Shown here: one piece after another, positions 5,675-51,311 of the stretch | How the letters are laid out: each line of letters begins with the position of its first letter | How positions within the stretch are numbered: position 1 is the stretch's first letter | NCBI GenBank assembly: GCA_963835065.1 | Contig: CAWIEK010000053.1 | Span: forward strand, 352,001-416,000 | Length of the DNA: 64,000 nt | From: an uncultured Chthonomonadaceae bacterium | Lineage (GTDB): Bacteria > Armatimonadota > Chthonomonadetes > Chthonomonadales > Chthonomonadaceae | Reading direction: 5' to 3' | Made by a program: the position numbers and the translations under genes | Notes under the pieces: generated by a model | Seen by the model: only the letters and a program-made list of their open reading frames with translations | Databases searched by the model: none | What the model was told of the DNA's origin: nothing

Positions 5675-5685
5675 CCTTCCATTGT

Positions 5686-5807
5686 GCCGGGGATTGAAAA
5701 TCCCCGGCAGGAAAGTGCAAGCGTCCTGCGGACACGCCATTCAATAATAGAGTATCGCGTCCGCAGAACGCTTGTTTTGTGTAGACGGGAATTTTCAATC
5801 CCCGGCA
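5686..5807. repeat. Inverted pair of REP-like units (stem-GAA-stem followed by GCGTCCTGCGGAC)
   Basis: GCCGGGGATT-GAA-AATCCCCGGC...GCGTCCTGCGGACACG and a degenerate reverse copy, between convergent genes. Confidence 0.8.
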
Positions 5808-5816
5808 GGAGGTAAA

Positions 5817-7082: not shown

Positions 7083-7260
7083 GTAGGGACACAACATGTT
7101 GTGTCCGCGCTCACCTCTACCGGAGGAGGACACGCCGCCGCCGGAGGACACGCCGCCGCCGGAGGACACGCCGCCGCCGGAGGACACGCCCGCCGCCGGA
7201 GGACACGCCGCCGCCGGAGGACACGCCGCCGCCGGAGGACACAACATGTTGTGTCCCTAC
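7083..7260. repeat. GTAG-type REP inverted pair enclosing six tandem GGAGGACACGCCGCCGCC units
   Basis: GTAGGGACACAACATGTTGTGTCC ... GGACACAACATGTTGTGTCCCTAC, with 18-mer units at 7125-7233. Confidence 0.85.
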
Positions 7261-7325: not shown

Positions 7326-8405
7326 TTATCGTCGTTTCTCCAATCCAGAAGTTGCGGCGGTTTGCGGCAAGAATTTTTGAACGCGCCTGCCGTTGACTTC
7401 GGCTACGTACACCGCCCCCTGATCGTCTACGCACAAGAGATGGGCGCGGCGCATCTGTCCCGACGCGCTCCCGGTTTTACCCCACCGCGCCAGGCGCTTG
7501 CCGTTCAGCGAATAGATACTGATGGTATCCGCCAGTCCGTCCGCGACGAACAAGCGTTGATCGGGCGTGATGAACACGCCAAACGGATGCCCCACATTGC
7601 GCCATTGCGTCAGGAACTTGCCGTCCGGGGTGAATACTTGCAGGCGCGCATTGGCGCGGTCCACCACGTATACGCGCCCCTGATTGTCTACGGCAAGCGA
7701 GTGTACCAGCCGAAATTGTCCCGGCCCGCTCCCCCGCTTCCCCCACGCGCCGATGTACCTGCCGCTCGAATCCAGATGCACAACGCGGGAATTGCCGTAG
7801 CCGTCGGCGATATACACATCTCCTTTTGGTCCGAAAGCGACATCGGCGGGCTGATCGAAATGCGTGGCATCGCAGCCGGGCGTATCGCGGACTCCCCATG
7901 CCGCCAGCAGTTTACCTTCGGGCGTATATTTGTACACTTGATGGCGGCCTACGTCTGTGAGCCACAGATTGCCGTTCGGGTCTATGCGGCAGCCGTGCGG
8001 ACTGGTAAACAAGCCCTGCCCCCAGGAGCGCAGATAATGCCCCTGCCGGTCAAACACCAGAATGGGATGCGGCGTTCGCTGGAATACAAACACCTGCCCC
8101 TGCCGATCTGTAGCAACCCCAACCACCATATTCGCGCCATAATCCGGCGGACGCGCGCCCGTATGTGAGGGCCAGTCAGGAACCGGGCGGTATGTTGTTT
8201 GCGCCCCGGCAGGACGGAACAGGCAGGAAAGCAGGCAGAACACCCACAGCAAACTTGTAAAAAATGGAGACGTTTCAAGTTTTCCGGGTACTGAAAGTAC
8301 CCGGCAGGAAAGTACAAGCGTCCTGCGGACGCGGGAATCTTGAAGCAGAGAATTACTTCCGCGAATTTGAAACGCGCTTATAAAAAATCGGCAGGAACTT
8401 GTCAT
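7326..8405 (-). CDS. NHL-repeat protein (peptidyl-alpha-hydroxyglycine alpha-amidating lyase-like), secreted
   Basis: FTSPHGCRIDPNGNLWLTD, QPADVAFGPKGDVYIADGYGNSRV, VYVVDRANARLQVF. Start uncertain. Confidence 0.85.
   Translation of the reverse strand: MTSSCRFFISAFQIRGSNSLLQDSRVRRTLVLSCRVLSVPGKLETSPFFTSLLWVFCLLSCLFRPAGAQTTYRPVPDWPSHTGARPPDYGANMVVGVATDRQGQVFVFQRTPHPILVFDRQGHYLRSWGQGLFTSPHGCRIDPNGNLWLTDVGRHQVYKYTPEGKLLAAWGVRDTPGCDATHFDQPADVAFGPKGDVYIADGYGNSRVVHLDSSGRYIGAWGKRGSGPGQFRLVHSLAVDNQGRVYVVDRANARLQVFTPDGKFLTQWRNVGHPFGVFITPDQRLFVADGLADTISIYSLNGKRLARWGKTGSASGQMRRAHLLCVDDQGAVYVAEVNGRRVQKFLPQTAATSGLEKRR
8284..8333 (+). repeat. REP-like unit, same family as 5686
   Basis: CCGGGTACT-GAA-AGTACCCGGCAGGAAAGTACAAGCGTCCTGCGGACGCG. 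Confidence 0.8.
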
Positions 8406-8437: not shown

Positions 8438-9622
<1,185 letters not shown>

Positions 9623-9634
9623 AACGGGAGTAAC

Positions 9635-9779
9635 TCTTCACCACCAAGACACCAAGAACACCAAGATAATACAGGCCACTAAAAGGCACAAAACCGGAGA
9701 CCTTTTCGTTCTCTCCTGCAATCTCGCAACATCTTTTTGCTCGTTCTGCTTGGTGTTCTTCGTGTCTTGGTGGTGAAGA
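9635..9779. repeat. Miniature inverted-repeat element with 31 bp arms (TCTTCACCACCAAGACAC...)
   Basis: 9635-9665 and 9749-9779 are reverse complements with one mismatch. Confidence 0.85.
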
Positions 9780-9806
9780 ATTATAAACGGAAAGCAGCAG
9801 GGCAGG

Positions 9807-10364
9807 ATGGAACGGTACAACCTTCACAAAGACGTGAGACAATTTGCCATTCACAAGCGCTGGACGACGTATGCCGGAAGGCTGCTGCATGGGTTCTGGG
9901 CGCTGATTCCCCTGCTATTTTGGGTCTTCCTGTGGCAGCGTGACCCGCGCCCAACTCCGATTCTGTTGCCGCTGCTTCTGTTAGGACTTCCCCTGACAGT
10001 AGTTCTCGGCTGTGGCGCGTATCTGCTGTGGAAGCTGAGTACGGGCGGCGATACATTTGTGTTTGATGCCCGCACCCACCTGTTTGAACACAACCGGCAT
10101 GTGGTCAGCCATTGGGACGGGATCGCGCAAATTCAGGTGATAGATGTGCCGCACCAACGCGACAAACGGGGCATTCAGGCCATGCTGAACCTGGATGAGT
10201 ATTACTACACCTACCGGCTTGTCGTGCTGCTCCACAACGGCAAAAAATACGCCCTCGACGAGTGCGGCAACAAACAAACCATTGCGGAACTGGCGCAGGA
10301 AGTTGCCGCCTACACCAACAAAGTTGTCGTCAGCGACGTAGCCAATGCCGGCTGGTTCGCCTGA
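9807..10364 (+). CDS. Hypothetical membrane protein (2 TM plus a soluble domain)
   Basis: 185 aa ORF with two hydrophobic segments. Confidence 0.7.
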   Translation: MERYNLHKDVRQFAIHKRWTTYAGRLLHGFWALIPLLFWVFLWQRDPRPTPILLPLLLLGLPLTVVLGCGAYLLWKLSTGGDTFVFDARTHLFEHNRHVVSHWDGIAQIQVIDVPHQRDKRGIQAMLNLDEYYYTYRLVVLLHNGKKYALDECGNKQTIAELAQEVAAYTNKVVVSDVANAGWFA

Positions 10365-10393
10365 TTCAAACGCCTGCGCCGCGTGGCTGTAAC

Positions 10394-10502
10394 AGAGAAG
10401 AAACGAAGAACAGGAGAGAGGAACCGCGAAACACACGAACCAAACGAAAAGAGGACAAAAAGAGGACAGGAAATAGACAGTATTAAGCGGATTAGCAGGA
10501 TT
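10394..10502 (+). repeat. Purine-rich AACCGCGAAACACACGAA-family repeat with an ATAGACAG..ATTA module
   Basis: Motifs shared with 14872, 15790, 33518 and 60450. Confidence 0.7.
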
Positions 10503-10809
10503 AAAAGGGTATGTAGAGTCATCGTCGAAATCTTGGCAATACAGCGCTTCCAGCCCGATGTCTCGTTGTGTCAGGTTGTAGGAGTGAGGCATCGTGGCCT
10601 CCGCAGCGTCAGGGCGAGCGGGAGGGGTGAAACATAGGACTTGCACCTCCCTTCCTGTGTGTAACGCCTGAAATGTAGACGTTTGTTACCTGTTAGACGG
10701 TAGTATCGGGCAAAGGGTTCGTTTCTTTTGCGTTATTTTGCTTTTTTCTGCCTCTTTTTTCTATCTTTTTCCTGTCTGTTTTTGCGGGAGGGTTGCTATT
10801 GGTACTGTG
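10503..10809 (-). other. Dispersed ~300 bp element, copy 1: ECF-like promoter, uORF MFHPSRSP* (10635-10609), second ORF starting MPHSYNLTQRDIGLEALYCQDFDD (10592), outward extended -10 on +
   Basis: Core near-identical to 51026-51311, and homologous along its whole length. Confidence 0.8.
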
Positions 10810-10818
10810 GGAATGGGA

Positions 10819-11107
10819 ATGAAACACACCTGCCCTGTTTGTGGATACAACCAACTGAGCCGCGCGCCGGAAGATTATACAATCTGCCCCTGCTGCCGTA
10901 CGGAGTTTGGCGCAAGTGACCAGTTCTGGACACACGCGGAGTTACGTCAGGACTGGATTACGCGCGGAGCGCAGTGGAGCAGACGTTATGTTCCCGGAGC
11001 CGCAGGGATGGTCAGCCGCCGAGCAGCTAAAAACCATTGGTTACATCTGCACGTATGCGAATTTAGAAAGCATCGCGCGATCAAACCCAACACCGGCAAC
11101 AGTTTAA
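10819..11107 (+). CDS. Cys-rich CPxCG...CPxC protein (CPCC-like, putative immunity protein); 1-nt frameshift near 10993
   Basis: MKHTCPVCGY...ICPCCRTEFG...; removing one C in GTTCCCGGAG joins it to EPQGWSAAEQL, colinear with the paralog at 11615. Confidence 0.75.
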
Positions 11108-11132
11108 CCCTCTTCGCCCCTTTGCGGTTCTT

Positions 11133-11190
11133 TTTGCCTTTCCTTTTTCGTTTACTTTGCGTCTTTCGCGGTTCCCCTCTCCTTGTCTTC
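11133..11190 (-). repeat. AACCGCGAAA-family repeat; direct repeat of 12044-12084
   Basis: 41 bp with one mismatch to 12044-12084. Confidence 0.85.
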
Positions 11191-11249
11191 CTTATGGTAT
11201 AATTTGGCAGTAGGAACCAACACTCTATGGGTTCAGGAGGGCACAAATT

Positions 11250-11618
11250 GTGCCGGTTGCCATCAATTTTGCAAGTTCGACACTTCTTACCAGACATTAT
11301 GCTCGGCATAAGGGAGACTTTGCTGTAACAAGCGAACAAGAGTATCTGAAAAAGGCCAAGAACTTCCTGAACACTCCTCTTGCCAGCAACACGAACATTG
11401 AAGAAAAACAGCGCAAAAGAGGCGGCGTCTTAGTTGAGGAGTGGGTTCGCTATGACAAAGCAACAAACGAATTTGCTGTCGTGTATATGGACGGCACAAT
11501 TGGGACTTACTTCAAGCCAATGATGTTGAGCGCGGCTCCAGCAGGTATGCCGCGCGACAAGATGCACAAGCGTTCAAGCAATTATCAGTATTTTCTGGAT
11601 GAGTGTGACTTACCATGA
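11250..11618 (+). CDS. Stand-alone polymorphic-toxin-like domain (pyocin/CdiA C-terminal-like, putative RNase)
   Basis: HYARHKGDF...EYLKKA...VRYDKATNEFAVV..DGTIGTYFKP...YF; AGGAGG SD and an upstream TGGTATAAT. Family recognised by eye. Confidence 0.7.
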   Translation: MPVAINFASSTLLTRHYARHKGDFAVTSEQEYLKKAKNFLNTPLASNTNIEEKQRKRGGVLVEEWVRYDKATNEFAVVYMDGTIGTYFKPMMLSAAPAGMPRDKMHKRSSNYQYFLDECDLP

Positions 11619-11947
11619 CAGAGAAAATTATATGTCCGGTGTGTGGATACGATGCGCTGGAGCGGCCTATCCACAATTACGACGTTTGCCCAAGTTGCCT
11701 GTGTGAGTTTGGCGTGAGTGATGCTGACTGGACTTACGCGGAATTGCGCGAGGATTGGATTGCTAATGGCGCGCTATGGGCATGGGGAAGCAAGGATATA
11801 CCGGAGCTTCGTGGCTGGTCGGCAGTCGAGCAATTGAAAAACATAGATTACCACTGCACATTGCAGGACATACGCAGCATAGCTCGTTTTCGAGAAACTT
11901 CTGATGGTATTGAACGGCCTGAGCTAAAGTCGGCGTTCGGCGCATAA
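11615..11947 (+). CDS. Cys-rich CPxCG...CPxC protein, putative cognate immunity protein
   Basis: CPVCGY...VCPSCLCEFGVSD; ATGA overlap with the toxin-like gene. Confidence 0.8.
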   Translation: MTEKIICPVCGYDALERPIHNYDVCPSCLCEFGVSDADWTYAELREDWIANGALWAWGSKDIPELRGWSAVEQLKNIDYHCTLQDIRSIARFRETSDGIERPELKSAFGA

Positions 11948-12043
11948 GCTAATGCCTTTCTAACAAGGATGCTGTTATGTCGCGCCTCGCAGGTGCAACG
12001 AAACGATTGTTCAAAGATGCACAGATGTGCTTAATTTTACTCC

Positions 12044-12112
12044 TTTGCCTTTCCTTTTTCGTTTACTTCGCGTCTTTCGCGGTTTGTATGTCTCCCCCTC
12101 TCCTCTTCTCCT
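12044..12112 (-). repeat. AACCGCGAAA-family repeat; inverted partner of 14872-14928
   Basis: 12056-12112 against 14872-14928: 57 bp, 3 mismatches. Confidence 0.85.
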
Positions 12113-12131
12113 CCCTTCTTCCTCCCCTTCC

Positions 12132-14699
12132 CTACGCCTGTTCCCACTCCGCAACCAAACTACGCGCTCTGGCAATGGCGCGTGTATCCTGCGTGGTTTC
12201 CAGCACCTGAAGCGCCTGCCGCACCCAGCGCAATGCCGCTGCCGAATTACCCTGCCTATTATAGAACAACGCCAGATTGATTAACGTCTCTCCTTCTCCA
12301 ACGCGATTTCCGGCCTCCCGGCGAATGACCAAGCTTTGCTCAAAGCAGGCAATCGCTTCCTCCCAATGGCCTTGACCCTCATAGACAACGCCCAGGTTGC
12401 TAAGCGTAATTGCTTCTTCCAACCTAGCCTTTAACTCTCGAAACAGGAGTAAACTTTGCTCAAAGCAGGCAATCGCTTCTTCCCAACGGCCTTGTTGCTG
12501 ATAGACATTGCCCAAGTTGGTAAGGGTTCCCCCTTCTCCAATGCGGTCGTCGAACTCGCGGCAGGTCGCTAAATCTTGCTCAAAGCAGGCAATCGCTTCC
12601 TCCCAACGGCCTTGTTGCTGATAGACATTTCCCAGGTTATTGAGCGTTTGTCCTTCGCCAATGCGGTTGCCAAATTCACGGAAGATTGGAAGGCTTTGTT
12701 CATAGCAGGCAATCGCTTCCTCCCAACGACCCTGTGTGTTGTAGACAACGCCCAGGTGAGTGAGAGTCCGCCCCTCGGCTGCTTTCTGGCCCGCAGTCCG
12801 TGTGACTCGTAAGGTTCGCAGGTTCAGTTCCTCTTGTTCCGACCACAGGCCGCGCAACAGCAGAAAACCGCCCATATACGCCGAAATGTATTCTATGACC
12901 TGCCATCTTTCTTCCCAACTCGTCTGCACTTCCGCAGTTTCGGCAGCATAGACGGCGTTGCGCCATTCTGCATCCAGAACGGCGTTGTTAGAATGGTCGT
13001 TAATGTTGTTGTGACCCATTGCTAATTGAGCATAGTAAATGCTGTAACGTTGCCGACGCGCATCCGCATTGGGCAGGTCATTCAATCTGGCAGCCGCGTA
13101 GAAGCGCGTGGGCCGCAGGAAGGTGTAGCGTCCGCAGCCATCCGCATCGAAGCCTTGCAGGTTTACAAGGCTGGCCTCGTGCAGTCGGTCCAGCAGGGTT
13201 TCGGCGTCTTCAATCTGACAAACCTCTTCCACCCGCGCAGCCGTGAACGTATCGCCGAAGACTCCCAGGCAGGCCAATCCTTCCTGAAACTGCGGCTCCA
13301 GTAGAGTGTATGACCAGTCCAAGCAACGAGTTAGAGACTCGTGACGGATGCTGGCATCGCTGTGAGCGTGTCCAGGCTGATGTCCACTGTACGGGCCGAG
13401 CGGCGTGTCGCGCAAGCCTTCCGCCATCTTTTGCAGCGAGCGCTTGCCCACATACGCCGCCACCAGTTCCAATCCCAACGCCTGACACTCCGTATACTTC
13501 AGAATGTCTTGGAACCACTTGCGCTCCCCACTTGAAACCTGCCAGCCGTCCACTTTTAACTGCGCCCGCTCCACAAACAGCCGTTCCGCTTCTTCGTCCG
13601 TCATGCCGGCAACCGGAACCTCTTTTTCCACATTGTCCAGTTTTACGGTTTCGCGCCCCGTCACCAATAAGCGCGCGTCGGGACAGGTGAGCAGCAAATC
13701 GCGCAGCAGGTCGCGGACTTCGACACAATCCACCGACTCGTAGTTGTCCAGCACGAACAGCGCGGCCTTGTCCTGCAAGGCGGGCAGCAGTTGTTCCAGC
13801 GTGGCCGGGTTGCCTTCCACCTGCATGGCCCGCCCTATCTCTTCCACAACCGACGCCTCAGATGCGAGACGGTCGACAAGCGCAACGAAATACAGGCCAT
13901 CCTTGAACGCGCTTGCGACTTGCAGGGCGCAGGCGACGGCCAGCCGGGTTTTGCCCATGCCGCCAAAACCGTGCAGCGTGACCAGCCGCACTTTTTCGCG
14001 GTCATTCAAGCGCTCGGCGTAATGGCGCAGGATTTTGGCCTGCAAGTCGCTGCGGTCAATATAGCGATTGAGTTCGATGCCGAACCCTTTAGGTATCCAG
14101 CGCGTTCCCGGCTCGCCCCGCGACGTGCCTTCCCCCTCCCACAGCAGTTCATGGATGTCTTCCGGGGTGAGAAAGTCTTTCAATCGGCGATTCTTCCAGT
14201 GCTGCCATTGGTATGCCTGCCCGTTTCCCGCTTCCTCGCAGGCTTTGTGCGACACCAGTATCTGCCCGCCCACGCCCGGCGCTCCTATACGTGAAGCGAG
14301 ATTCACTTCCAGATTTCGGTACTTGCCGTTCTCGAAAAACACTTCCTGCGAGGCGCGGTAAATGCCCATCCGCACCCGAACCGTCCACATTTTGCCTTCC
14401 GCTTCCTGCGCAGTCGGCTCTGCTTGTGCCGTAATCGGTTCCGCGTGGAGGCTTTGCTGAATGGCGCAGGCGCAGGCAAGAGCATCGCGGGCATGTTGGA
14501 ACGTGACCATAAAGCCGTCGCCGGGATGATCCACTTCATAGCCATTATGCGCCACAAACACTTCCCGCAAGCGTTCGTCATGCGCTTCCATCAAGGCTTT
14601 GTAGGCATGGGGAACCGCGCGGCTGAGTTTTGTAGACCCTTCCACGTCGGTATACAGCAGCGTAATCGTTCCCTGCGGCGGCACAATCGCTTCGGACAT
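12132..14699 (-). CDS. Class III cyclase domain + STAND/NB-ARC ATPase + TPR repeats
   Basis: TLLYTDVEGST, GDGF, RVRMGI; Walker A GFGGMGKT, Walker B LFVLDNYE; 40-aa repeats LGNVYQQQGRWEEAIACFEQ. Confidence 0.9.
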   Translation of the reverse strand: MSEAIVPPQGTITLLYTDVEGSTKLSRAVPHAYKALMEAHDERLREVFVAHNGYEVDHPGDGFMVTFQHARDALACACAIQQSLHAEPITAQAEPTAQEAEGKMWTVRVRMGIYRASQEVFFENGKYRNLEVNLASRIGAPGVGGQILVSHKACEEAGNGQAYQWQHWKNRRLKDFLTPEDIHELLWEGEGTSRGEPGTRWIPKGFGIELNRYIDRSDLQAKILRHYAERLNDREKVRLVTLHGFGGMGKTRLAVACALQVASAFKDGLYFVALVDRLASEASVVEEIGRAMQVEGNPATLEQLLPALQDKAALFVLDNYESVDCVEVRDLLRDLLLTCPDARLLVTGRETVKLDNVEKEVPVAGMTDEEAERLFVERAQLKVDGWQVSSGERKWFQDILKYTECQALGLELVAAYVGKRSLQKMAEGLRDTPLGPYSGHQPGHAHSDASIRHESLTRCLDWSYTLLEPQFQEGLACLGVFGDTFTAARVEEVCQIEDAETLLDRLHEASLVNLQGFDADGCGRYTFLRPTRFYAAARLNDLPNADARRQRYSIYYAQLAMGHNNINDHSNNAVLDAEWRNAVYAAETAEVQTSWEERWQVIEYISAYMGGFLLLRGLWSEQEELNLRTLRVTRTAGQKAAEGRTLTHLGVVYNTQGRWEEAIACYEQSLPIFREFGNRIGEGQTLNNLGNVYQQQGRWEEAIACFEQDLATCREFDDRIGEGGTLTNLGNVYQQQGRWEEAIACFEQSLLLFRELKARLEEAITLSNLGVVYEGQGHWEEAIACFEQSLVIRREAGNRVGEGETLINLALFYNRQGNSAAALRWVRQALQVLETTQDTRAIARARSLVAEWEQA

Positions 14700-14871
14700 C
14701 AAGGCTGCCCTCCCTGCTTCCAAATTGGTACGGAGTGACTGAGCAACGGCGTCTCTCCCCACAAACCAAAAATCTCCAACAAAACAATAAACCGGCCTTG
14801 CAACAATGCCGGAGCGTTCGCCGCGCAAACCTGATTTTCCTCCCTCACCGCCTTACGCAGAAAAGAAGAAG

Positions 14872-14928
14872 AGGAGAAGAGGAGAGGGGGAGACATAGAA
14901 ACCGCGAAAGACGCAAAATAAACGAAAA
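14872..14928 (+). repeat. AACCGCGAAA-family repeat
   Basis: AGGAGAAGAGGAGAGGGGGAGACATAGAAACCGCGAAAGACGC. Confidence 0.85.
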
Positions 14929-15036
14929 CAGACGAACTGAAATTTTGTGCAGAAGGCGGAAACGCTTGCCAATAGAAGAAAGGGGAAGCCCTGTTTCCCC
15001 TTTCCTTTTGTTTTGCATTTTTCAGGAGAACCGTTC

Positions 15037-15747
15037 ATGCGCTCCCGCAGCCTTGTCCGCCATCTAATTCGTACCCTTTTGCTGTCGGCCCTCTTCTTTC
15101 TCGCGCTGGCGTCGGCGCAGGCGCAACAGCTTATTTTTGATAATACCTTCCGCTACACCAGTCAGGAAACGCGCGACGACGGCACGGGCATCGGAACCTG
15201 TATCACGCAGGTTGCCGCCGATACGCAAATCGGCAGTTTCGCCGCCCCGGTCAGCCTCACGCAAGCGGGCGATCTGGAATTTCTAATTTTCGATTCCAAC
15301 AACGGCGCGTTGCTGTACCAGAGCGCGCCCAAAGCCTACGCTTTCGACAACGGCGTGGTTTCCCTGCACCATTCCGACCCGTTCCAATTCACGCTGCAAG
15401 CGGGACACCAGTACGACATAGGCGTTTTGGCGGATGTGCCGCTGGTGTACCAGTGGTGGTTCCACAGTTTTGCCGCTTCGCCCGGCAAGCCCCCCTACAG
15501 TTTCACTGAAAACGGCATCACGTCGGCAGGCAGCCTCAACGCCAACTTCAACACCTACGCCGGCACGTTCGCCCACCCTCACGATGACCTCGCTCCCGGC
15601 CTCGTGGATATGGGACTCGTCCTCTACGGCCCTACCGCCAATCCGTCCGCCGTTCCCGAACCCGGCGCAGTAACGCTGATCGCCGCTCTCCTCCTGTCCA
15701 CCGCCATGCTGCTCCGCTGGAAGAGAATTCACCACCCGCTTCGCTAG
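15037..15747 (+). CDS. PEP-CTERM sorting domain protein
   Basis: Signal peptide; C-terminal VPEPG + TM + RWKR; AGGAG SD. Confidence 0.9.
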   Translation: MRSRSLVRHLIRTLLLSALFFLALASAQAQQLIFDNTFRYTSQETRDDGTGIGTCITQVAADTQIGSFAAPVSLTQAGDLEFLIFDSNNGALLYQSAPKAYAFDNGVVSLHHSDPFQFTLQAGHQYDIGVLADVPLVYQWWFHSFAASPGKPPYSFTENGITSAGSLNANFNTYAGTFAHPHDDLAPGLVDMGLVLYGPTANPSAVPEPGAVTLIAALLLSTAMLLRWKRIHHPLR

Positions 15748-16035
15748 AGGCACAGAGGAAGAGGGGGAGAAGGGGAGAAGAGGAGAAGAGGAGAGTGGGA
15801 ACCGCGAAACACACGAACTAAACGAAAAAAGAACAAAAGGACAAGGAGAAAAGCATCATAGAAACCATGAGGTGACTGTACTTCTTTACCGTCTTTGCTT
15901 CTTTGCGGTTTTTGTTTTTCCTTTTTTCGTTTTGGTTCGTTTCTTTCGCGGTTCCCCTCTCTTCTCTCCTGTTGTCCTTCTCGCATCGGCTTTTCCTCTG
16001 TGTCTCTGTGTCTCTAGCGAAGCGGGTGGTGAATT
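15726..16035. repeat. Nested inverted-repeat element (outer arms CACCACCCGCTTCGCTAGAGRCACAGAG, inner arms GAACCGCGAAA)
   Basis: Outer arms are near-perfect reverse complements; the left arm contains the PEP-CTERM stop codon. Confidence 0.85.
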
Positions 16036-16043
16036 TTTCCTGT

Positions 16044-16061
16044 TTGTGCGATTTTTCACAA
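16044..16061. promoter_or_regulatory. Rex/Crp-type operator candidate TTGTGCG-ATTT-TTCACAA
   Basis: Two mismatches to TTGTGAA-N4-TTCACAA; upstream of ctaA. Confidence 0.5.
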
Positions 16062-16111
16062 CCTTCGTTCGTAGACTAGGCAACAGCGTAAATGCGGGGT
16101 ACAATGAGGGA

Positions 16112-18773: not shown

Positions 18774-19544
18774 ATGGCTCAAATTTTCCACCCCGCAACC
18801 AATGTGCTTGCAAAGGCCAGCCTGCTGTTTTTCGGCATCATCGGGCCGACGGCGACGCTGCTCATTGCCAGCGGCGTTTCCCGTATGTCGTTCAATACCA
18901 AAGTGGGCGTTCCTCTGCCGCAGCCGGTCCCGTTCAGCCACGAACACCATGCCGTCGAGTTAGGAATTGACTGCCGCTATTGTCACGGCGGCGTCGAAAA
19001 GTCCTCCTACTCGCCCCTGCCGGCTACGGAAGTGTGCATGTCGTGCCATTCGCAAATTTGGACGGACAGCCCCCTGCTCGATCCCATCCGCAAAAGCTAC
19101 GCCGAAGGCAAGCCGATGCTGTGGAACAACGTGAACGCCGTACCCGATTTCGCTTATTTCCCGCACAACATCCACATCAACCGGGGCATTTCGTGCAACT
19201 ACTGTCACGGCCCCATTCAGAAGATGATGATGGTCTACAAGGGCAAGTCGTTCTTCATGGTGTGGTGCCTGAACTGCCACCGCCAGCCGGAGAAATTCAT
19301 TCAGCCCCGCGAAAACGTGTGGAAACTGTATCAGGACATTCAGCGCTTCGGCTACGCGGTTGATTCCAGCGGCAAGGACGAGAACGATCCCAAGCGCGAA
19401 GGGCTGACGCCGCGCCAGTACGCGCTCGCCGAAGGGCAGTCGTACATGAACAACGCCGACGAAACCCTCGTCAGCCAGCATTTGATTACTCAGTATCGCG
19501 TGAAGAAGCAGCAGCTTGCCGACTGTTGGATATGCCATCGGTAA
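18774..19544 (+). CDS. actA: Alternative complex III pentaheme cytochrome c subunit
   Basis: MAQIFHP start, QPVPFSHEHH, five CxxCH motifs (CRYCH, CMSCH, CNYCH, CLNCH, CWICH). Confidence 0.95.
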   Translation: MAQIFHPATNVLAKASLLFFGIIGPTATLLIASGVSRMSFNTKVGVPLPQPVPFSHEHHAVELGIDCRYCHGGVEKSSYSPLPATEVCMSCHSQIWTDSPLLDPIRKSYAEGKPMLWNNVNAVPDFAYFPHNIHINRGISCNYCHGPIQKMMMVYKGKSFFMVWCLNCHRQPEKFIQPRENVWKLYQDIQRFGYAVDSSGKDENDPKREGLTPRQYALAEGQSYMNNADETLVSQHLITQYRVKKQQLADCWICHR

Positions 19545-19550
19545 GGAGGA

Positions 19551-19675
19551 AGTAGTCAGTAGTCAGTAGTCAGTAGTCAGTAGAAAAACCCTCTGCTAAC
19601 AAACCTTTACTGGCGCACAAACCTTTGAGTAGACAGGCATTTCTACTGACTACTGACTACTGACTACTGACTACT
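19551..19675. repeat. Heptamer-arm inverted element (AGTAGTC)n - spacer - (GACTACT)n
   Basis: Perfect 36 bp inverted repeat, 19551-19586 and 19640-19675. Confidence 0.95.
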
Positions 19676-22600: not shown

Positions 22601-22844
22601 CAACATTGCGCGGCAAACCGCCAAGATGCAGGAGCGCGACCTGGCCGACCACGAAATTGTCACGGCCTGCCAGCAAACCTGCCCGACCAACGCCATCGTG
22701 TTCGGCAACATCAACGACCCGAACAGCGAAGTCTCGAAACTGAAAGCAGAGCCGCACAACTACGGTGTGCTTGCCGACCTGAACACGCGCCCCCGCACGT
22801 CGTACCTGGGCCGTGTGCATAATCCGAATCCAGAACTGGGGTAG
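19686..22844 (+). CDS. actB: ACIII subunit B (TAT-variant molybdopterin-oxidoreductase-like domain + Fe-S domain)
   Basis: YWRTL, DRRQFL twin-Arg plus [54 protein letters not shown]...CQQTCP. Confidence 0.97.
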
Positions 22845-22965
22845 TAGTCAGTAGTCAGTAGTCAGTAGTCAGTAGGAATCCTCTTCTCATATATCCGATA
22901 CTGACGCACAAAACTTTGAGTAGACCGGCATTTCTACTGACTACTGACTACTGACTACTGACTAC
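22843..22965. repeat. Heptamer-arm inverted element, sister of 19551
   Basis: Same heptamer and a similar spacer (..CGCACAAA.CTTTGAGTAGAC.GGCATTT). Confidence 0.95.
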
Positions 22966-22981: not shown

Positions 22982-24478
22982 TTGGCTGACGTTTATCCCA
23001 CCCCGAACCCTGCGCCGGGTGAAAATACCGAACCGACGGGCAATCGCCTGATCGGGGGCCGCAATACCTACGAGACGATCACGGATCGCATCGGGCGCAT
23101 CGTGCTGAATCAGGCCGGACACCCGCTGCCCTGGTATGTCATGGCGGGCATCGGGTTTTTGCTGCTCAACCTGCTGATGTACACTATCGTCTATCTGCTG
23201 TGGATGGGCGTCGGCATCTGGGGCATCAATGAGCCGTCCGCGTGGGGCTTCGACATCATCAACTTCGTGTGGTGGATCGGTATCGGCCATGCGGGAACGC
23301 TGATTTCGGCCATTCTGCTGCTGCTCAGACAGCAATGGCGTACCAGTATCAACCGCTTTGCGGAAGCCATGACGCTGTTCGCGGTTTCGTGTGCCGGCCT
23401 GTTCCCACTCCTGCATACAGGGCGTCCCTGGTGCGCGTACTGGATGTTCCCCTATCCGAGCATCCTGGCGATGTGGCCGCAGTTCCGCAGCCCGCTAATT
23501 TGGGACGTGTTCGCGGTTTCCACGTATGCGACGGTTTCCGCTGTGTTCTGGTTTATCGGCCTGATACCCGACCTTGCCAGTCTGCGCGACCGGGCGACCA
23601 ACGTGTACGCCAAAGTCCTCTTCGGCGCGGGCGCATTGGGCTGGCGCGGTTCGGCTGCGCACTGGCAGCGCTATGAAAGCGCGTACCTGATTTTGGCCGG
23701 GTTGTCTACGCCGCTCGTGCTTTCGGTCCACTCCATCGTGAGTTTCGACTTCTCCGTTGGAATCGTTCCGGGCTGGCACACGACGATTTTCCCGCCGTAC
23801 TTCGTCGCGGGCGCGGTTTTCGCCGGGTTTGCAATGGTTATCACGTTCGCCATTCCCCTGCGCAAGATGTATCATCTGGAAGACTTCATCACGATGAAGC
23901 ATCTTGACTGGATGGCGAAGATCATGCTCACGACGGGCCTGATTGTCGCTTACGGCTACCTGATGGAAGTGTTCTTCGGCTGGTACGGCGGCGACAAGTA
24001 CGAAATGGACATGCTGCGGTTCCGCATTTTCAGCCCCGCGTATGGCTGGTCGTACTGGGTGCTGATCTGCACAAACATTCTGATTCCGCAGTTGATGTGG
24101 TTCAAAAAGTACCGCATGAACCTGAAAATACTGTTCCTTGTGTGCCAGTCGGTCAGTATCGGGATGTGGTTCGAGCGGTTCGTGATTATTCCGGTCAGCC
24201 TGCACCGCGATTATCTGCCGTCCAGCTGGAACTACTATGTGCCGCGCCCGTTCGATTACACGATGTTCCTGGGCACGATTGGGCAGTTCATTTTCCTGAT
24301 GTTCCTGTTCATCCGGTTCCTGCCGATGATCTCGATCTTTGAAATGCGCGAACTGCTGCACCACGAAAGCCACACACACGGCGACGAACACGGCACGGGT
24401 GGGCATCACGGCCATGTTTCCCCGGGCGGCGAGCAAGCCAACGCTGTTACCAGTCCTGCGGGATTGAAGCATGAGTGA
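22982..24478 (+). CDS. actC: ACIII subunit C (NrfD/PsrC family quinol-binding membrane subunit)
   Basis: WGFDIINFVWWIGIGHAGTLISA, INRFAEAMT, SPLIWDVFAV, GWHTTIFPPYFVAGA, GMWFERF. Confidence 0.97.
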   Translation: MADVYPTPNPAPGENTEPTGNRLIGGRNTYETITDRIGRIVLNQAGHPLPWYVMAGIGFLLLNLLMYTIVYLLWMGVGIWGINEPSAWGFDIINFVWWIGIGHAGTLISAILLLLRQQWRTSINRFAEAMTLFAVSCAGLFPLLHTGRPWCAYWMFPYPSILAMWPQFRSPLIWDVFAVSTYATVSAVFWFIGLIPDLASLRDRATNVYAKVLFGAGALGWRGSAAHWQRYESAYLILAGLSTPLVLSVHSIVSFDFSVGIVPGWHTTIFPPYFVAGAVFAGFAMVITFAIPLRKMYHLEDFITMKHLDWMAKIMLTTGLIVAYGYLMEVFFGWYGGDKYEMDMLRFRIFSPAYGWSYWVLICTNILIPQLMWFKKYRMNLKILFLVCQSVSIGMWFERFVIIPVSLHRDYLPSSWNYYVPRPFDYTMFLGTIGQFIFLMFLFIRFLPMISIFEMRELLHHESHTHGDEHGTGGHHGHVSPGGEQANAVTSPAGLKHE

Positions 24479-24600
24479 AGGCATTAGGCATTAGGCATTA
24501 GGCATTAGGAAGAACTTGACTGATGCCAGATGGGTGAAATTGCGCATGTATGGTGAAATCAGGATTTTCCTAATGCCTAATGCCTAATGCCTAATGCCTG
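24479..24600. repeat. Heptamer-arm inverted element (AGGCATT)n - spacer - (AATGCCT)n
   Basis: Read directly; spacer similar in reverse orientation to the 39456 element. Confidence 0.95.
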
Positions 24601-24610
24601 AGGAACGAAC

Positions 24611-30532: not shown

Positions 30533-32296
30533 ATGAGCGGAATATCCATTCAGCCAAACGAATTGCCCACAGAGCGCGGAGTGGTGCGCGAAAACTACCT
30601 CAACGAACAGCACACGATCAAATCGTGGCTGCTTACGGTTGACCACAAGCGCATTGCGATTCTGTACCTTATATCCATCACCTTTTTCTTTGTCATCGGC
30701 GGCGCGGCGGCAGGCTTGATTCGCCTTGCCCTGACCACGCCACACGACACCTGGTTCCAGTCGGAAACCTACAACAAACTGTTCACCATACACGGCGTCG
30801 TGATGATTTTCTTCTTCCTGATTCCGTCTATTCCGGCGGTTTTGGGGAACTTTCTGATACCGCTGATGATTGGGGCGCGCGACCTCGCTTTTCCACGTCT
30901 GAACCTGCTGAGTTGGTATGTCTTCATTGTTGCCGGGTTGTTCGGCGTGGCCTCCATTGTAGCGGGCGGCGTGGATACGGGCTGGACCTTCTACACGCCC
31001 TATAGCTCGATGTACAGCAACTCCAATGTCGTGCTGACGATTGCCGCCGCGTTTCTGGCGGGCTTCTCGTCCATCTTTACAGGTATAAACTTCATCGTTA
31101 CAATCCACAAAATGCGCGCGCCGGGCATGACATGGTTCCGCCTGCCGCTGTTTTGCTGGTCCCTGTACGCGACGAGCGTGATCCAGATTTTGGGAACGCC
31201 GGTTGTCGCTATTACCCTGCTGCTCGTGGTTCTGGAGCGTACCGTACACCTGGGCATTTTCGACCCGGCCAATGGCGGCGACCCGATTCTGTTCCAGCAC
31301 ATGTTCTGGTTCTACTCGCATCCCGCCGTGTACATCATGATTTTGCCCGCTTTCGGCGTTATCAGCGAATTGATGGCAGCGTTTACCCGGCGGCGCATCT
31401 TCGGCTACAGCTTCGTGGCGTTTTCCAGCATGGCGATTGCGGTATTGGGCTTTCTGGTGTGGGGCCACCACATGTTCGTGACGGGCCAGTCCATGTATTC
31501 GAGCATGGTGTTTTCCATCATCAGCTTCCTGATTGCCGTGCCGACCGCCATCAAAATCTTCAACTGGACGGCGACCATTTACAAGGGACAGGTTTCATTT
31601 ACGGCCCCCTTCTGCTACGCTTTGGGTTTCATCGGCCTGTTCACGCTGGGAGGCTTGACCGGCTTGTTCCTCGCGGCGCTGGCAACCGACGTTCACCTGA
31701 ACATGACGTACTTTGTCGTGGCGCACTTCCACTATGTCATGGTGGGCGGCGCGATCATGGCCTACATCGGCGGCATCCACTACTGGTGGCCTAAAATGAC
31801 GGGCCGCATGTATCCTGAAAACTGGGCGCGTCTTTCCGCCGCGATTACGTTTGTCGGCTTCAACCTGACGTTCTTCCCGCAGTTCATCGTGGGCTATATG
31901 GGCATGCCGCGCCGGTACCACTACTACGCGCCGGAATTTCAGGTATGGCAGGTGCTGTCCAGCGCAGGCTCTTCGGTGTTGGGATTCGGCTACATCCTGC
32001 CTGTCTTCTATCTGCTCTGGTCGCTGAAATACGGCGCGATTGCCGGTCCGAACCCCTGGGGCGCGAAGGGCTTAGAGTGGGAGATTCCCTCCCCGCCGCC
32101 CTCCTACAACTTCGACGAGACGCCCATTGTCACGCACGAAGCGTATGCCTACGATGAGGACATGGAGGATCAGGCGCGGCAGGATCGCGACATCATGCCC
32201 GGCACAGGCCATGCCCGCGAAGAAGAAGCGTACAACGACGAACACTTGAGCAGCAACCCGGCCCAGAGTTCGGGACGCAGCAGCGAGGAACTGTAA
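30533..32296 (+). CDS. coxA: Cytochrome c oxidase subunit I, A2 type
   Basis: [21 protein letters not shown] (YS motif of A2), [19 protein letters not shown]. Confidence 0.98.
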
Positions 32297-33154
32297 ATGA
32301 GTGTTGAGGTCGAACATCAGCAATACGCGCATCAGCATGTCTCGCACCAGTTCGAGGACATCGAGCAGCAGAACGAAGCCTACATCGTCGGCATGTGGAC
32401 GTTCCTTGTCACCGAAATCATGTTCTTCGGAGCGTTATTTCTCGCGCTGACGATCTACCGTTCCATCCACGTCGCGGACTTCAACGACGCCCACAAGCAC
32501 CTCAACGTGTTTTACGGGGGCTTCAACACGGTTGTCCTGCTGACAAGCAGTTTCTCAATGGTGCTGGCCGTGCGCAGCGCGATGCTGGCAAGCCGCCGGG
32601 GAACGCTGTTCTTCCTGGGACTGACATTAATCGGCGCGTTCATCTTTTTGGGCGTAAAAACCATTGAGTACAAGGAAAAGTGGGACCTGCACTTGATTCC
32701 CGGCCCTACCTTCCATTATGAGTCGGTGGGCGCGGAGAACAATGGCGAGTCATCGGCGGAAGCCCGCCAGCGCACATCTCTAGGCGCAGGTCCCGGCCAG
32801 TACCACGAACGCGGCCCGATTGTCCGTTCGGGTGGCGACTTGTCTAACTCGTCGGTAAGTTCGGAAACCGGCGCGAACACCGGCGCGAATAATGCCGAGA
32901 CCAACAAAAAAGGACTGGCGGAAGACGGCAAGCAGTTGTTCTTTTGCCTGTACTTCATCATGACCGGCCTTCACGCCATTCACATCATCCTGGGTATTCT
33001 GGTGATGGGCGCGTTATGGGTCATGTACGTGTTCCGGCATCCCGCCGTCGAAGACTACATGACGCTGGAAATGACAGGGCTATACTGGCACTTCGTAGAT
33101 ATCGTCTGGATATTCCTGTTCCCCATCCTTTATCTCGTGGGAGGACACCCGTAA
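32297..33154 (+). CDS. coxC: Cytochrome c oxidase subunit III
   Basis: GMWTFLVTEIMFFG, NTVVLLTSS, TGLHAIH, GLYWHFVD. Confidence 0.95.
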   Translation: MSVEVEHQQYAHQHVSHQFEDIEQQNEAYIVGMWTFLVTEIMFFGALFLALTIYRSIHVADFNDAHKHLNVFYGGFNTVVLLTSSFSMVLAVRSAMLASRRGTLFFLGLTLIGAFIFLGVKTIEYKEKWDLHLIPGPTFHYESVGAENNGESSAEARQRTSLGAGPGQYHERGPIVRSGGDLSNSSVSSETGANTGANNAETNKKGLAEDGKQLFFCLYFIMTGLHAIHIILGILVMGALWVMYVFRHPAVEDYMTLEMTGLYWHFVDIVWIFLFPILYLVGGHP

Positions 33155-33155
33155 C

Positions 33156-33512
33156 ATGGCAGCACATACCGAACATAACGAACATCATAACGAAGATTCG
33201 CACGATCTGTCGCACCACATCCGACCGATTAAAGAATACGCGATTGTTTACGGCGTCTTGATGGTACTCATGGCCGCAACTATTGCGGTGTCCTACGTGA
33301 AATTCCCCATAGAAGCCATAAACGTCATCGTCGCGCTTGTGATCGCCATCATTAAAGCCGTGCTTGTCGTCCTATTCTTCATGGGCGTGAAACACGGGAC
33401 GCGCCTGACCTGGGTATGGGCCAGTCTGGGCTTCATCTGGTTCCTGCTGATGTTCGGCACGTTGGGCGATTACGTCACGCGCAACTGGATTCAACTGCCC
33501 TCCGGCTGGTAG
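33156..33512 (+). CDS. coxD: Cytochrome c oxidase subunit IV family protein
   Basis: Three TM helices, IAIIKAVLVVLFFM. Confidence 0.9.
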   Translation: MAAHTEHNEHHNEDSHDLSHHIRPIKEYAIVYGVLMVLMAATIAVSYVKFPIEAINVIVALVIAIIKAVLVVLFFMGVKHGTRLTWVWASLGFIWFLLMFGTLGDYVTRNWIQLPSGW

Positions 33513-33517
33513 TTCCG

Positions 33518-33772
33518 GGAAGAAAAGGAGAAAAGGAGAAAAGGAGACAGAAACCGCGAAACACGCGAACCAAGACGAAAGAGGAAAATCCAAAAGAACA
33601 AACCACAGATTAAAACGGATGAAACGGATAAGAACATCGAAAGCCAGCCCGGTCTTGTTGTTCATCCTGTTTAATCCTGAAAATCCTTTTAATCCTGTCT
33701 ATTTTCCTTTTGTTCTTTTTTCGTTTATTTCGCGTGTTTCGCGGTTCCCTTCTCCTTTTCTCCTTTTCTTCC
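33518..33772. repeat. Nested inverted-repeat element of the AACCGCGAAA family
   Basis: GGAAGAAAAGGAGAAAAGGAGAA...AACCGCGAAACACGCGAA and ...TTCGCGTGTTTCGCGGTT...TTCTCCTTTTCTCCTTTTCTTCC, between convergent genes. Confidence 0.85.
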
Positions 33773-33774
33773 TC

Positions 33775-34506
33775 TCACCAGTACAGCCAGTTGTGGGTGG
33801 TGAGGACGTAGAGGCCGAGTACGAAGTTGGTGGTGGCGTGGGCGATGAGGCAGGCGAAGAGGCTGCGGGTTTGGCGCAGGAGCAGGCCATACGCGACGGC
33901 GCAGATCAGGGCGGCAAGCCATTCCGGGTGCGCGAGGGCGAAGGCGGCGGCAACGGCGGCAAACGCGCCCCACGAAAAGGCGTACGGCGGAATGGATTGG
34001 AATTTTTCGGTTGTGATGTAGCGGATCAAGAAGGAGCGCCAGAACAGTTCCTCCATGATGGGAACCATGACAGCCAATCCGAACAGGCGAAACGCGAGGA
34101 ATAAAGCGCGTTGTGGTTCGCTTAACGCCAAAGGATCGAAGGCGACGCGCTTGCCCATTGCCAGATGCGGCGTATATGGGTCAATGAGGATCCATTCGGC
34201 AAACACGAACACGCCGACGAGAACAGCGGGCAATAGGACGCGCCATTCAAACAGGTAATCCCGCAGGGTTTTGCGAAACACGACCAGACTCAGGCTAACG
34301 ACCAATACTTTTAGAATGTAAATCCACACGTAGTTGTTTTTGTTGCCGCCCTCCAGCATGGATAGTCCGGTGAATAACAGCATCGGAACCACGTAGCCAA
34401 CCCATGACGCCCCTGGCAAGAAGGCTGACACCGGTTCCGGCAAAACCTCTCCCATTTCGGCGTCAAGCGGCGCTCCTGCGGAATTCGTTTGTTTTACTTC
34501 ACTCAT
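33775..34506 (-). CDS. CAAX prenyl protease-related (CPBP family) protein of the type associated with PEP-CTERM/exosortase systems
   Basis: VPIMEELFWRSFL, FALAH, AHATTN, C-terminal WLYW. Confidence 0.88.
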   Translation of the reverse strand: MSEVKQTNSAGAPLDAEMGEVLPEPVSAFLPGASWVGYVVPMLLFTGLSMLEGGNKNNYVWIYILKVLVVSLSLVVFRKTLRDYLFEWRVLLPAVLVGVFVFAEWILIDPYTPHLAMGKRVAFDPLALSEPQRALFLAFRLFGLAVMVPIMEELFWRSFLIRYITTEKFQSIPPYAFSWGAFAAVAAAFALAHPEWLAALICAVAYGLLLRQTRSLFACLIAHATTNFVLGLYVLTTHNWLYW

Positions 34507-39123: not shown

Positions 39124-39455
39124 CGCTTGCATTGACGCCGCCCTGCTTGAAACCGTTGTTCATAAATTTACAGGCGTTCACACATTCGCCTGCGCGAAAA
39201 GACAGCACAACATCCGAAACCTGTGGTATAATGCGTTTACATGGAGAAAACGCGCTTTTTTACTGTCGCGTTGTTGCCGTGCAGGAATTCGCGCCCCGTT
39301 GCCGAATTCTTTCCTTAGAGGAACCCATCGCCGCCTGCTTATACGGCTGCGCTCGCCATTCTTCCTCCCCCCGTGCCGTCAACCTGGCCCCGGCCTGATC
39401 GCGCCTGCCCCCGCTCGCCCGCTCCCGCCGCGCCCATGTGAAGACTGTCGCAGGA

Positions 39456-39573
39456 AGGCATCAGGCATTAGGCATTAGGCATTAGGAAATCCGCTGTCCA
39501 TAAGATTGCTCAATCCTCAGTACATCTCATGCAGTTCTTTCCTAATGCCTAATGCCTAATGCCTGATACCTGA
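39456..39573. repeat. Heptamer-arm inverted element (AGGCATT)n, sister of 24479 in opposite orientation
   Basis: Read directly. Confidence 0.9.
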
Positions 39574-48390: not shown

Positions 48391-49508
48391 CGGCAACCGT
48401 GACGACTTCCCCTGCCCCCCACTCGGACGCGACGGTTGCACATCTGCCGCGCATGGACGAACGGCAGCCCAAACGCGCGCTGCTGATTTTACTTGGGATG
48501 CTGTTGCTGATGCTCATTGTTGACATCGGCGCGGCTCCCAAAGAAGTGGCCTTGCGAACGCCCGCGCCGGTTGTTATCGGCGTCATCGCGCAGCACATAC
48601 CGCTTATCGGCAAACATATCCACCTGCCGCCGAGCGTCCGGGATGTTGACCACAGCATCGCGTGGAGCATCCGCCTGCCCCGCGCATTGTGCGGCGTCGG
48701 AGTCGGGATGCTGCTGGCACTGGCGGGAGTGGCGTTCCAATCCCTGCTGATGAACCCGCTTGCCGACCCTTATACAACGGGCGTCGCATCCGGTTCCGCA
48801 TTGGGAACCATTGTGCTGACGCTGGCGGGCGGCGCGGCGTGGCTGGGCGGCTTTGGGCTTGTCGGCGCGTCGTTTGCGTCGGGGCTGCTGGCGGTCAGTA
48901 TCGTGTACATGCTGGCGCGGGTGGGCGGGCGCGTGTCGGCGCAGACGTTTTTGCTGTCGGGAACCATTGTCGGCTCGTTTTTCTTCGCGCTCATTCCACT
49001 CTTGTTGTCACGGGCAAGCAATGGCGGCGCCGATGCCAAAGCCATAATTTTGAACAGTCTGTTCGGCAGTCTGGGTACAGTCGGCTGGCCGCAAGCGTGG
49101 CTGCTGCTCCCGTTTTGCGCATCGGGCGTCTGGCTGCTGTGGCGTGGCGCGGCAGAACTGGATATTATGGCATTTGGCGAGGAAAGCGCGGCGCACCTGG
49201 GCGTGGATACCGAAGCGTTCAAGCGGCGTATCATCGTACTCGGCTCCCTGTTGACGGCGGCGGCAGTGGCGGTGGCGGGCATCATCGCGTTCGTCGGGTT
49301 TCTCGTGCCGCATCTCGCTCGCCGGTTGGTGGGCGCGGGGCATCGTGACCTGGTTCTAGCCTCAGCCCTGCTCGGCGGTATCGTGCTGACACTGACGGAT
49401 TACCTGTCCCGCGTGTGGCTCGACGACCTGCAAATCGGCGTCGTCACCTCGCTGCTCGGCGTCCCGTTCTTCTGCGCCCTGCTGCGCCGCCGAATGGTCA
49501 AAGGCTAA
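48387..49508 (+). CDS. FecCD/BtuC family ABC permease
   Basis: IRLPR, NPLADPY..GVASG, GEESAAHLGV, GIIAFVGFLVPH. Confidence 0.93.
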   Translation: MTATVTTSPAPHSDATVAHLPRMDERQPKRALLILLGMLLLMLIVDIGAAPKEVALRTPAPVVIGVIAQHIPLIGKHIHLPPSVRDVDHSIAWSIRLPRALCGVGVGMLLALAGVAFQSLLMNPLADPYTTGVASGSALGTIVLTLAGGAAWLGGFGLVGASFASGLLAVSIVYMLARVGGRVSAQTFLLSGTIVGSFFFALIPLLLSRASNGGADAKAIILNSLFGSLGTVGWPQAWLLLPFCASGVWLLWRGAAELDIMAFGEESAAHLGVDTEAFKRRIIVLGSLLTAAAVAVAGIIAFVGFLVPHLARRLVGAGHRDLVLASALLGGIVLTLTDYLSRVWLDDLQIGVVTSLLGVPFFCALLRRRMVKG

Positions 49509-49519
49509 ATAATTATCTC

Positions 49520-49680
49520 ACCACAGAGGCACAGAGACACAGAGGATTCACAGAGGAAAAGAGAGAAAAGGAGAAAAGGAGAAGAGGAGAGGGAACTGCG
49601 AAGTATACGAAGGATCATAATTTTCTTTCTCCTTTCTCTTTTCTCTCTGTGACCCCTCTGTGTCTCTGTGCCTCTGTGGT
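49520..49680. repeat. Inverted-repeat element with ACCACAGAGGCACAGAGACACAGAG arms
   Basis: Arms are reverse complements; internal GGAGAAAA units; related to the 15726 arms. Confidence 0.88.
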
Positions 49681-49702
49681 TCAAATTTCATTTAGGAGGC
49701 GC

Positions 49703-50808: not shown

Positions 50809-51025
50809 GTCATTCAGTTAAGGGGCCGTAAATCTATAACTGTCCGAACCAGCGGGAAGCCCAGCTCTTGCCTACGAGAAGTCCTGCAAACCCATCGGAA
50901 CAGCGGCAAGCAGGAAAAGGTTAGCCGCGAATACACGCGAATGAACGCAAATATCGGAAAACACGAAACAGCGAATGGAAGACGATCTTGTGTTCGCTGT
51001 TCGTTTTGCAGAGCGAACGCTTCTA

Positions 51026-51311
51026 AAAAGGAAATATGTAGAGAGATCGTCGAAATCTTGGCAATACAGCGCTTCCAGCCCGATGTCTCGTTGTGTCAGA
51101 TTGTAGGAGTGAGGCATCGTGACCTCGGAAGCGTCAGGGCGAACGGGAGGAGTGGAACATGGGCCTGTACCTCCTTTGCTGAATAGTAGACACTTGTACT
51201 ATTTAGACAGGAGGAATGGGGCAAAAGGTTCGCTGTTTTCGGGTTATTTTGCCCTTTTTTTTCTGTTTTTTTCGGGATTGTTTTGGCGGGAGGGTTGCTG
51301 TTGGCATTATG
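51026..51311 (-). other. Dispersed ~300 bp element, copy 2 (uORF MFHSSRSP* 51160-51134; ORF MPHSYNL... from 51117)
   Basis: Homologous to 10503-10809; preceded by a GCCGCGAATACACGCGAATGAACGC repeat at ~50920-50950. Confidence 0.8.

Follow-up and report, generated by a model that had tools for sequence, protein, structure and literature searches.

The window analysed here is a stretch of 64,000 nucleotides (G000 C53:352001-416000) from the 8.0-Mb, 92% complete assembly of an uncultured Chthonomonadaceae bacterium, designated G000; C-numbers denote contigs of this genome, L-numbers denote GxxExxY or array loci, and G001 and G002 are the congeners with which it was compared. An initial sequence-only reading had singled out the island at positions 9635-16035, located between an esterase gene and ctaA, as an array of accessory genes bounded by related repeats, and all of the features and repeats that it listed were located in the window sequence. 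The repeats are composed of arms, which were assigned by profile to nine types with labels of our own (A, Z, E, G, B, C, D, F, and J). The left end of the island is formed by a gene-less hairpin element (9631-9783, no strand assigned) that starts 9 bp past the esterase stop codon and consists of G-type arms of three 8-9-bp units each. It has about 40-60 similar copies in the genome, and its arm type also frames a GxxExxY gene in G002 (L153). Next is a gene on the plus strand (9807-10364) encoding a lineage-specific membrane protein of 185 aa, for which no Pfam or NCBIfam match over cut-off was obtained and only one weak match was found among 41 genomes of the family.

The following block is enclosed by the two halves of a nested element. 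The left half (10394-10502, plus strand) contains a purine-rich tract, a B arm (10421-10448), and a D arm (10473-10502), and the right half (11105-11195, minus strand) contains a truncated C arm and a B arm of a rare subtype. The centre of what is otherwise a standard B-D...C-B element is occupied by a copy of a separate dispersed family (10503-10825, plus strand) and by a Cys-rich, CPCC-like gene (10819-11107, plus strand), which is a frameshifted orphan paralogue of the gene at 11615 and scores below the Pfam cut-off. The dispersed family has approximately 160 genomic copies, of which only 9 have an arm within 200 bp upstream; its second copy in the window (50922-51311) is preceded by a solo J arm. 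Next is a toxin-antitoxin-like pair (11196-11947, plus strand) that has an extended -10 box of its own and consists of a gene for a 122-aa protein with a predicted colicin-D/CDI-like RNase fold (11250-11618, plus strand) and a second CPCC-like gene (11615-11947, plus strand), also below cut-off. The structural model of the 122-aa protein (pLDDT 93, 7 sequences) matched CDI toxin 8ey4 best (E 5e-4), followed by colicin D tRNase domains. This toxin was found in 7 of the 41 family genomes, and the toxin-CPCC pair occurs without adjoining arms in G002 and at C48 of G000.

The right part of the island is dominated by an adenylate/guanylate cyclase-STAND-TPR gene (12132-14699, minus strand), a member of an expanded family, the stop codon of which is abutted by a solo B arm with purine tract (12044-12130, minus strand). 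On its other side lies a further solo B arm with purine tract (14859-14930, plus strand), which is an inverted near-copy of 12056-12113. The last gene (15037-15747, plus strand) encodes a protein with a PEP-CTERM tail, a motif that was recognised in the translation and for which no profile match was obtained; a Z arm (15726-15747) supplies its final codons and stop codon. The island closes with a complete nested hairpin of the arrangement Z> B> ... <C <B <Z (15726-16035, no strand assigned). Both island hairpins fold far better than shuffled sequences, with z-scores of -8.3 for the element at 9631-9783 and -16.5 for that at 15726-16035; the long hairpin gave only sub-threshold miRNA and snoRNA matches in Rfam. 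Elsewhere in the window, a nested element B> F> <D <B (33513-33790) and an A-type element (49505-49695), neither with an assigned strand, lie between core genes outside the island.

Mapping in the whole genome showed that the repeats are not specific to the island. The repeat core recognised initially has 116 exact copies in the genome, 7 of which lie within the window, and each non-coding piece of the island matches between tens and 160 other genomic places. A profile search of G000 (score threshold 22; no matches in three reversed contigs used as control) detected 909 arms of the nine types at 440 sites, counts that are slightly inflated by near-identical duplicated loci (C47/C55, C32/C63, and C41:111476-115152), possibly reflecting assembly redundancy. 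Every arm consists of three direct units of 8-9 bp, and a hairpin is formed only between two arms. Most arms of type B, the commonest type in G000, occur as inverted pairs 100-300 bp apart, and the elements are mostly nested hairpins of 100-350 bp with a preferred order in which Z, A, or E is outermost, followed by B and then by C, D, or F. The short arm pairs number 246; of all 256 pairs, no more than 10 exceed 400 bp and have room for genes between the arms. Paired elements begin at a median distance of 10 bp past a stop codon (at most 30 bp in 191 of 253), 63 of 205 paired sites are at convergent gene ends as compared to 14% of junctions, and merely 10 of the 440 arm sites are located inside called genes. 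The flanks of 174 paired elements contained no more direct repeats than a shuffled control, and hence gave no signal of target-site duplication, although old duplications could have decayed. Homogenisation in place of the two arms of an element was considered and is not supported, since identity within elements is approximately that between elements for most types.

The behaviour of the elements over time was deduced from junctions that are orthologous among the three genomes, based on 1.2 Mb from G002, 0.8 Mb from G001, and a rough custom gene caller that misses short AT-rich genes. Some junctions that carry arms in G000 are empty in G002, indicating that the elements come and go; an empty site at strain-level identity was not seen. 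Occupied junctions are nevertheless shared well beyond chance expectation, with 11 of 246 common to G000 and G002 (odds ratio 27) and 5 of 133 common to G000 and G001 (odds ratio 28), and the arm composition at these common junctions is identical in 5 of 11 and 0 of 5 cases, respectively. At one site, for example, G001 has F arms, G002 has Z with D, and G000 has Z, A, B, D, and F. The interiors of B elements have been copied between loci, and the outer shell co-travels in 32 of 57 cases, where 18 are expected; a near-identical interior is present in an E shell and in an A shell.

Whether such repeats delimit cassettes was judged against integrons, in which an IntI integrase acts on attC sites that lie in direct orientation within cassette arrays. 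The island resembles an integron in that small accessory genes, a toxin-antitoxin-like pair among them, follow one another with related repeats in between, and differs from it in the mixed orientation of the repeats and in their occurrence mostly outside any array. The initial impression that neither integrase nor attC is visible was borne out: the best TIGR02249 score in the 92% complete assembly was 124 bits against a cut-off of 265, with none of the 8 matches on the contig of the window, and a simple motif test of both strands of 9601-16100 found no RYYYAAC ... GTTRRRY pair 30-150 bp apart. Moreover, the repeats are not enriched at the boundaries of variable genes, and equal repeat density between core genes is an outcome that the sequence-only reading had named as speaking against its proposal. 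Arms were present at 28 of 349 core-core junctions and at 8 of 143 junctions with G000-specific insertions (p=0.45), and repeats of any family were depleted at the latter (36 of 143 versus 168 of 349; p=2e-6). G002 has arms at 19 of 246 core junctions and at 33 of 725 other junctions. Distant arms of the same type show no preferred orientation (12/11/11/11). Given the lack of enrichment at variable junctions, the paucity of long pairs, the absence of orientation bias, and the absence of a detectable integrase or attC site, the arms are not cassette boundaries as a rule, and as they occur at core junctions as often as at variable ones, the island is likely a local pile-up and not an integron-like cassette array.

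Part of what stands of the proposal that these repeats are recombination or insertion sites building variable arrays is local copying of arms. The close similarity of neighbouring repeats was confirmed, with 41 bp and 1 mismatch between 11133-11173 and 12044-12084, and 58 bp (57 bp in the sequence-only reading) and 3 mismatches between 12056-12113 and the inverted copy at 14871-14928. Such closeness was reached by only 0.74% and 0.18%, respectively, of 20,493 distant arm pairs, and exceeds family likeness. Three of the four genomic copies of the rare B-arm subtype lie within the island, and the middle arm (12044-12130) is chimeric, its inner part resembling the left neighbour (11133-11173) and its outer part the right neighbour (14871-14928). 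Local copying is a general tendency, as near neighbours were top-2 matches in 11 of 71 arm pairs where 2.6 were expected, at least 3 of the 11 being plain segmental duplications. The island carries 13 of the approximately 900 arms, and no other cluster in the genome is as dense, 6 of the 440 sites being concentrated in 6.4 kb. It has arms at 6 of its 7 gene junctions, the longest run in the genome; counted by called genes this is a run of 4, which was reached in 22 of 300 shuffles, so that the excess is modest.

The gene order of the island varies among relatives, as had been anticipated. Neither congener links the esterase gene to ctaA, the two genes that flank the island: G002 has them on separate contigs, and in G001 about 2 Mb separate ctaA from the genes located upstream of the esterase. 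In G002, the region upstream of ctaA contains a PEP-CTERM gene that differs from the one in the island, together with a D arm and a further pair of small genes. The genes between the island repeats are lineage-variable. Related contigs (approximately 90-95% identity) extend across the esterase, cyclase, PEP-CTERM, and ctaA genes up to the arms, and none spans an arm; the joints listed run from repeat to repeat and are uninformative on excision or inversion, and the membrane gene and the toxin pair are largely uncovered. Among the public runs listed, four contained 5-10% of the searched words, all as contigs, and none was an RNA run. Taken as a whole, the observation underlying the sequence-only reading is confirmed and its interpretation is supported in part: the island is likely a rearrangement breakpoint at which GxxExxY-linked hairpins, both whole and halved, have piled up locally among genes that were acquired, with some arm-mediated shuffling. 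It would be a side product, yet one that shows how such repeats could assemble accessory genes.

Several other loci in G000 associate arms with small genes. At C50, a segment (145717-145776) shares the arm, the promoter, and the start of the toxin gene with the island (E 1e-8) and is the only clear second match in the genome. It belongs to a region (C50:144713-146102) in which a small toxin-antitoxin-like pair lies between two B elements with a direct repeat of approximately 130 bp (94%), all inside a C...C pair; the gene pair has 87% DNA identity to that upstream of ctaA in G002. At C2:33125-39110 (L345), a second array is formed by the two closest cyclase-STAND-TPR paralogues, both apparently broken, which are arranged in tandem and separated by B, G/E, and G arms of the same sense. 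Precisely at the arm, one contig from a close relative diverges from G000. Small genes are also enclosed by arm pairs at C49, C59, and C65. The C59 locus (31859-34457) represents a third mini-array, where a pair of A arms encloses a small toxin-antitoxin-like pair, beyond which lie one more gene and repeated A arms. The three local arm copies in the island, together with the second toxin-antitoxin pair that shares arm plus promoter, make occasional arm-linked gene capture plausible. A 259-bp direct repeat (98%), in which an A-B left half is present as well as both gene ends, delimits a 3.5-kb insert at C68:82498-86482, and this insert carries a fragment of a Y1 transposase.

The arms could be connected to a specific protein family, in agreement with the suggestion in the sequence-only reading that GxxExxY-type PD-(D/E)xK genes are flanked by similar repeats. 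G000 has three genes of this family (PF13366), framed by E/E, C/C, and Z/G arms, and further GxxExxY genes in five relatives are framed by pairs of G, A, E, B, D, F, and J arms, the B-framed gene being found in G006. In G000 or a relative, arms of types G, E, C, B, D, F, J, and A thus frame a GxxExxY gene on both sides, and Z does so on one side. Among 123 loci supplied, 111 had enough flanking sequence, and 92 had an inverted repeat across the gene as compared to 40 in the direct-repeat control. Of the 80 metagenome loci with the best relatives of the B-type gene (some rows being identical), 51 had B-like arms on both sides. In a quick tree, all 25 genes labelled B/B fell into one supported clade of 70 and none among the other 41, and arm type followed protein clade. 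A separate GxxExxY clade (L157, L161, and L163) lies amid scattered multi-copy arrays instead of one inverted pair.

The co-occurrence of gene and arms extends to the phylum. At least nine A/E-type arms were found in 20 of 151 sampled genomes, from ten families and all among the 58 with a GxxExxY gene, and the 93 genomes without the gene have at most 7 such arms; as the genomes are related, the p-value of this co-occurrence is overstated. The B pattern is present in 2 of the 151 genomes. No B-, D-, F-, or J-type nuclease gene or fragment was detected in the 92% complete G000 assembly. Random B-arm loci were tried as a route to the mobiliser and abandoned, since none of 80 loci fetched from other genomes (out of 121 listed) had a GxxExxY gene within 900 bp; the reverse search, from gene to arms, was successful. 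Two of the three G000 nuclease genes are at the same locus in G002, and the others have been gained, lost, or decayed. One of the genes (C19:8195-8760, L001; L153 in G002) has Z/G arms in G000 and G/G arms in G002. A solo J arm at C21 retains the final codons of a G002 nuclease gene and is the remnant of a decayed GxxExxY element. A GxxExxY gene of G001 (L164, L165) is split by an insertion sequence, and its arms have been kept.

Among 43 GxxExxY sequences, the putative catalytic residues D75, E85, K87, and Q99xxxY103 show no or almost no variation. The protein model resembles Cas4, lambda exonuclease, and Hjc weakly, all with E above 0.001, and sequence searches of the PDB gave no match. The passage in PMC3424549 on the PDDEXK_3 / GxxExxY family (PF13366, TIGR04256) describes its function as unknown and reports multiple transfers; the arm-linked genes found here are members of this family, and that passage is silent on flanking repeats and gene-less copies. 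No paper tying GxxExxY, PF13366, or TIGR04256 to repeats was found in the open literature searched. For this widespread family, G000 offers a testable job and candidate substrates, in the form of nine arm types matched to protein clades and hundreds of gene-less copies.

The closest analogy is provided by REPIN-RAYT systems, for which PMC3116915 and bioRxiv 10.1101/2024.10.14.618302 describe genomes with several repeat types, hundreds of copies located outside genes as inverted pairs or singlets, and a small number of enzyme genes that are flanked by these repeats and in part inherited vertically. In the latter source (REPORTH), the REPIN type at an orthologous site changes between genomes by overwriting, and blue REPINs are abundant without a cognate gene. 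The hairpins described here are likewise high-copy extragenic inverted doublets with a repeat type that is overwritten at orthologous sites, and one type, B, is abundant without its cognate gene. In contrast to REPIN-RAYT, the flanked gene encodes a PD-(D/E)xK protein of approximately 130 aa and not an HUH Y1 transposase, the arm comprises three direct units and is not a small palindrome, and arms of different clades nest into mosaics of up to four layers. The GxxExxY hairpin system works like REPIN-RAYT without being a member of it. Bacterial MITEs and the composites built from them, such as TIMEs (PMC4133298), are non-autonomous, and have in common with the elements found here the terminal inverted repeats and the ability to enclose cargo genes on occasion. 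The latter differ from MITEs in giving no target-site duplication signal and in that no DDE transposase with these ends was found.

The reading that probably accounts best for these observations is that the island repeats are gene-less versions of the hairpins that frame GxxExxY genes, likely spread and overwritten in trans by the nuclease, and that the island is likely a breakpoint pile-up and not a cassette array. Nuclease-started copy-and-replace between arms would be the simplest interpretation of element behaviour. The GxxExxY protein would bind the three-unit arms and nick or cut there, after which repair from another copy, often a nearby one, would paste or replace the DNA between arms and thereby build the nested mosaics. 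By a minor route, a copied tract might include a small gene, or an arm might be duplicated around incoming DNA, either of which would yield an arm-bounded gene and would account for the CPCC gene and the toxin pair in the island. In this view, the nuclease is the putative mobiliser of the arms.

Alternatively, the arms may be RNA hairpins or protein-binding sites at gene ends that are homogenised by host recombination, with GxxExxY recognising its own flanks and moving no gene-less copies, and with the island as a tolerant breakpoint that collected foreign genes and repeats. The strong folding, the positions past stop codons and at convergent ends, the occupation of the same junctions across three species, the fact that several unrelated repeat families occupy 48% of core junctions, and the lack in G000 of a gene cognate to its commonest arm are all compatible with this. 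It nevertheless appears unlikely, as high arm counts are confined to gene-carrying genomes, empty orthologous sites exist, and a swap to an unrelated arm type requires more than homology between the old and the new arm. A different possibility is that the arms are site-specific recombination sites at which small circles of arm and gene integrate, giving polarised, integron-like arrays driven in trans. The near-complete run of arms at the island junctions, the 41-bp direct repeat flanking its toxin pair, the C50 pair with its direct repeats and shared arm, promoter, and toxin start, the C2 paralogues with the departing contig, and the enclosed genes at C49, C59, and C65 would fit. This is quite improbable, however, given the lack of arm enrichment at variable junctions, the rarity of long pairs (two of which enclose core genes or the nuclease gene), the absence of orientation bias with island arms and genes pointing both ways, the homologous toxin pairs without arms, the recurrence of the called-gene run in 22 of 300 shuffles, and the finding that arms are not commoner near PEP-CTERM genes (6 of 55) than near other genes (766 of 6371).

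Movement of the arms as classical MITEs or REPINs by a DDE or HUH (RAYT/IS200) transposase of G000 would agree with their terminal inverted repeats, their high copy number, and four Y1 transposase matches in the genome. It is very improbable, because the paired elements lack a target-site duplication signal, arms are absent from the 1-kb surroundings of all Y1 matches but one, which is itself a fragment located in duplicated sequence, and GxxExxY is the only gene repeatedly framed by matching arms. Returning to spreading by the nuclease, a more far-reaching version is conceivable, though doubtful at present. GxxExxY might represent a second, independently evolved REPIN-type engine, in which a minimal PD-(D/E)xK nuclease would rewrite inter-arm DNA from a donor copy and hold the hairpins at fixed gene ends across species, and would in this way capture and shuffle small genes such as toxin-antitoxin pairs into arrays without integrase or transposase. 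If the protein does spread and overwrite arms, repeat populations of the REPIN kind evolved twice on the basis of unrelated enzymes, and a nuclease of approximately 130 aa that drives sequence-directed replacement would be interesting both for its mechanism and as a tool.

Finally, other repeats are present in the intergenic regions of the window. REP-like hairpins and an 18-bp tandem array are located in the gaps to the left of the island (5677-5810, 7099-7260, and 8274-8340). Inverted pairs of 7-mer tandem arrays, which may be linked to four-helix-bundle genes, lie between core respiratory genes at 19534-19675, 22826-22965, 24473-24601, and 39450-39573, and several families of such arrays have 200-400 genomic matches.
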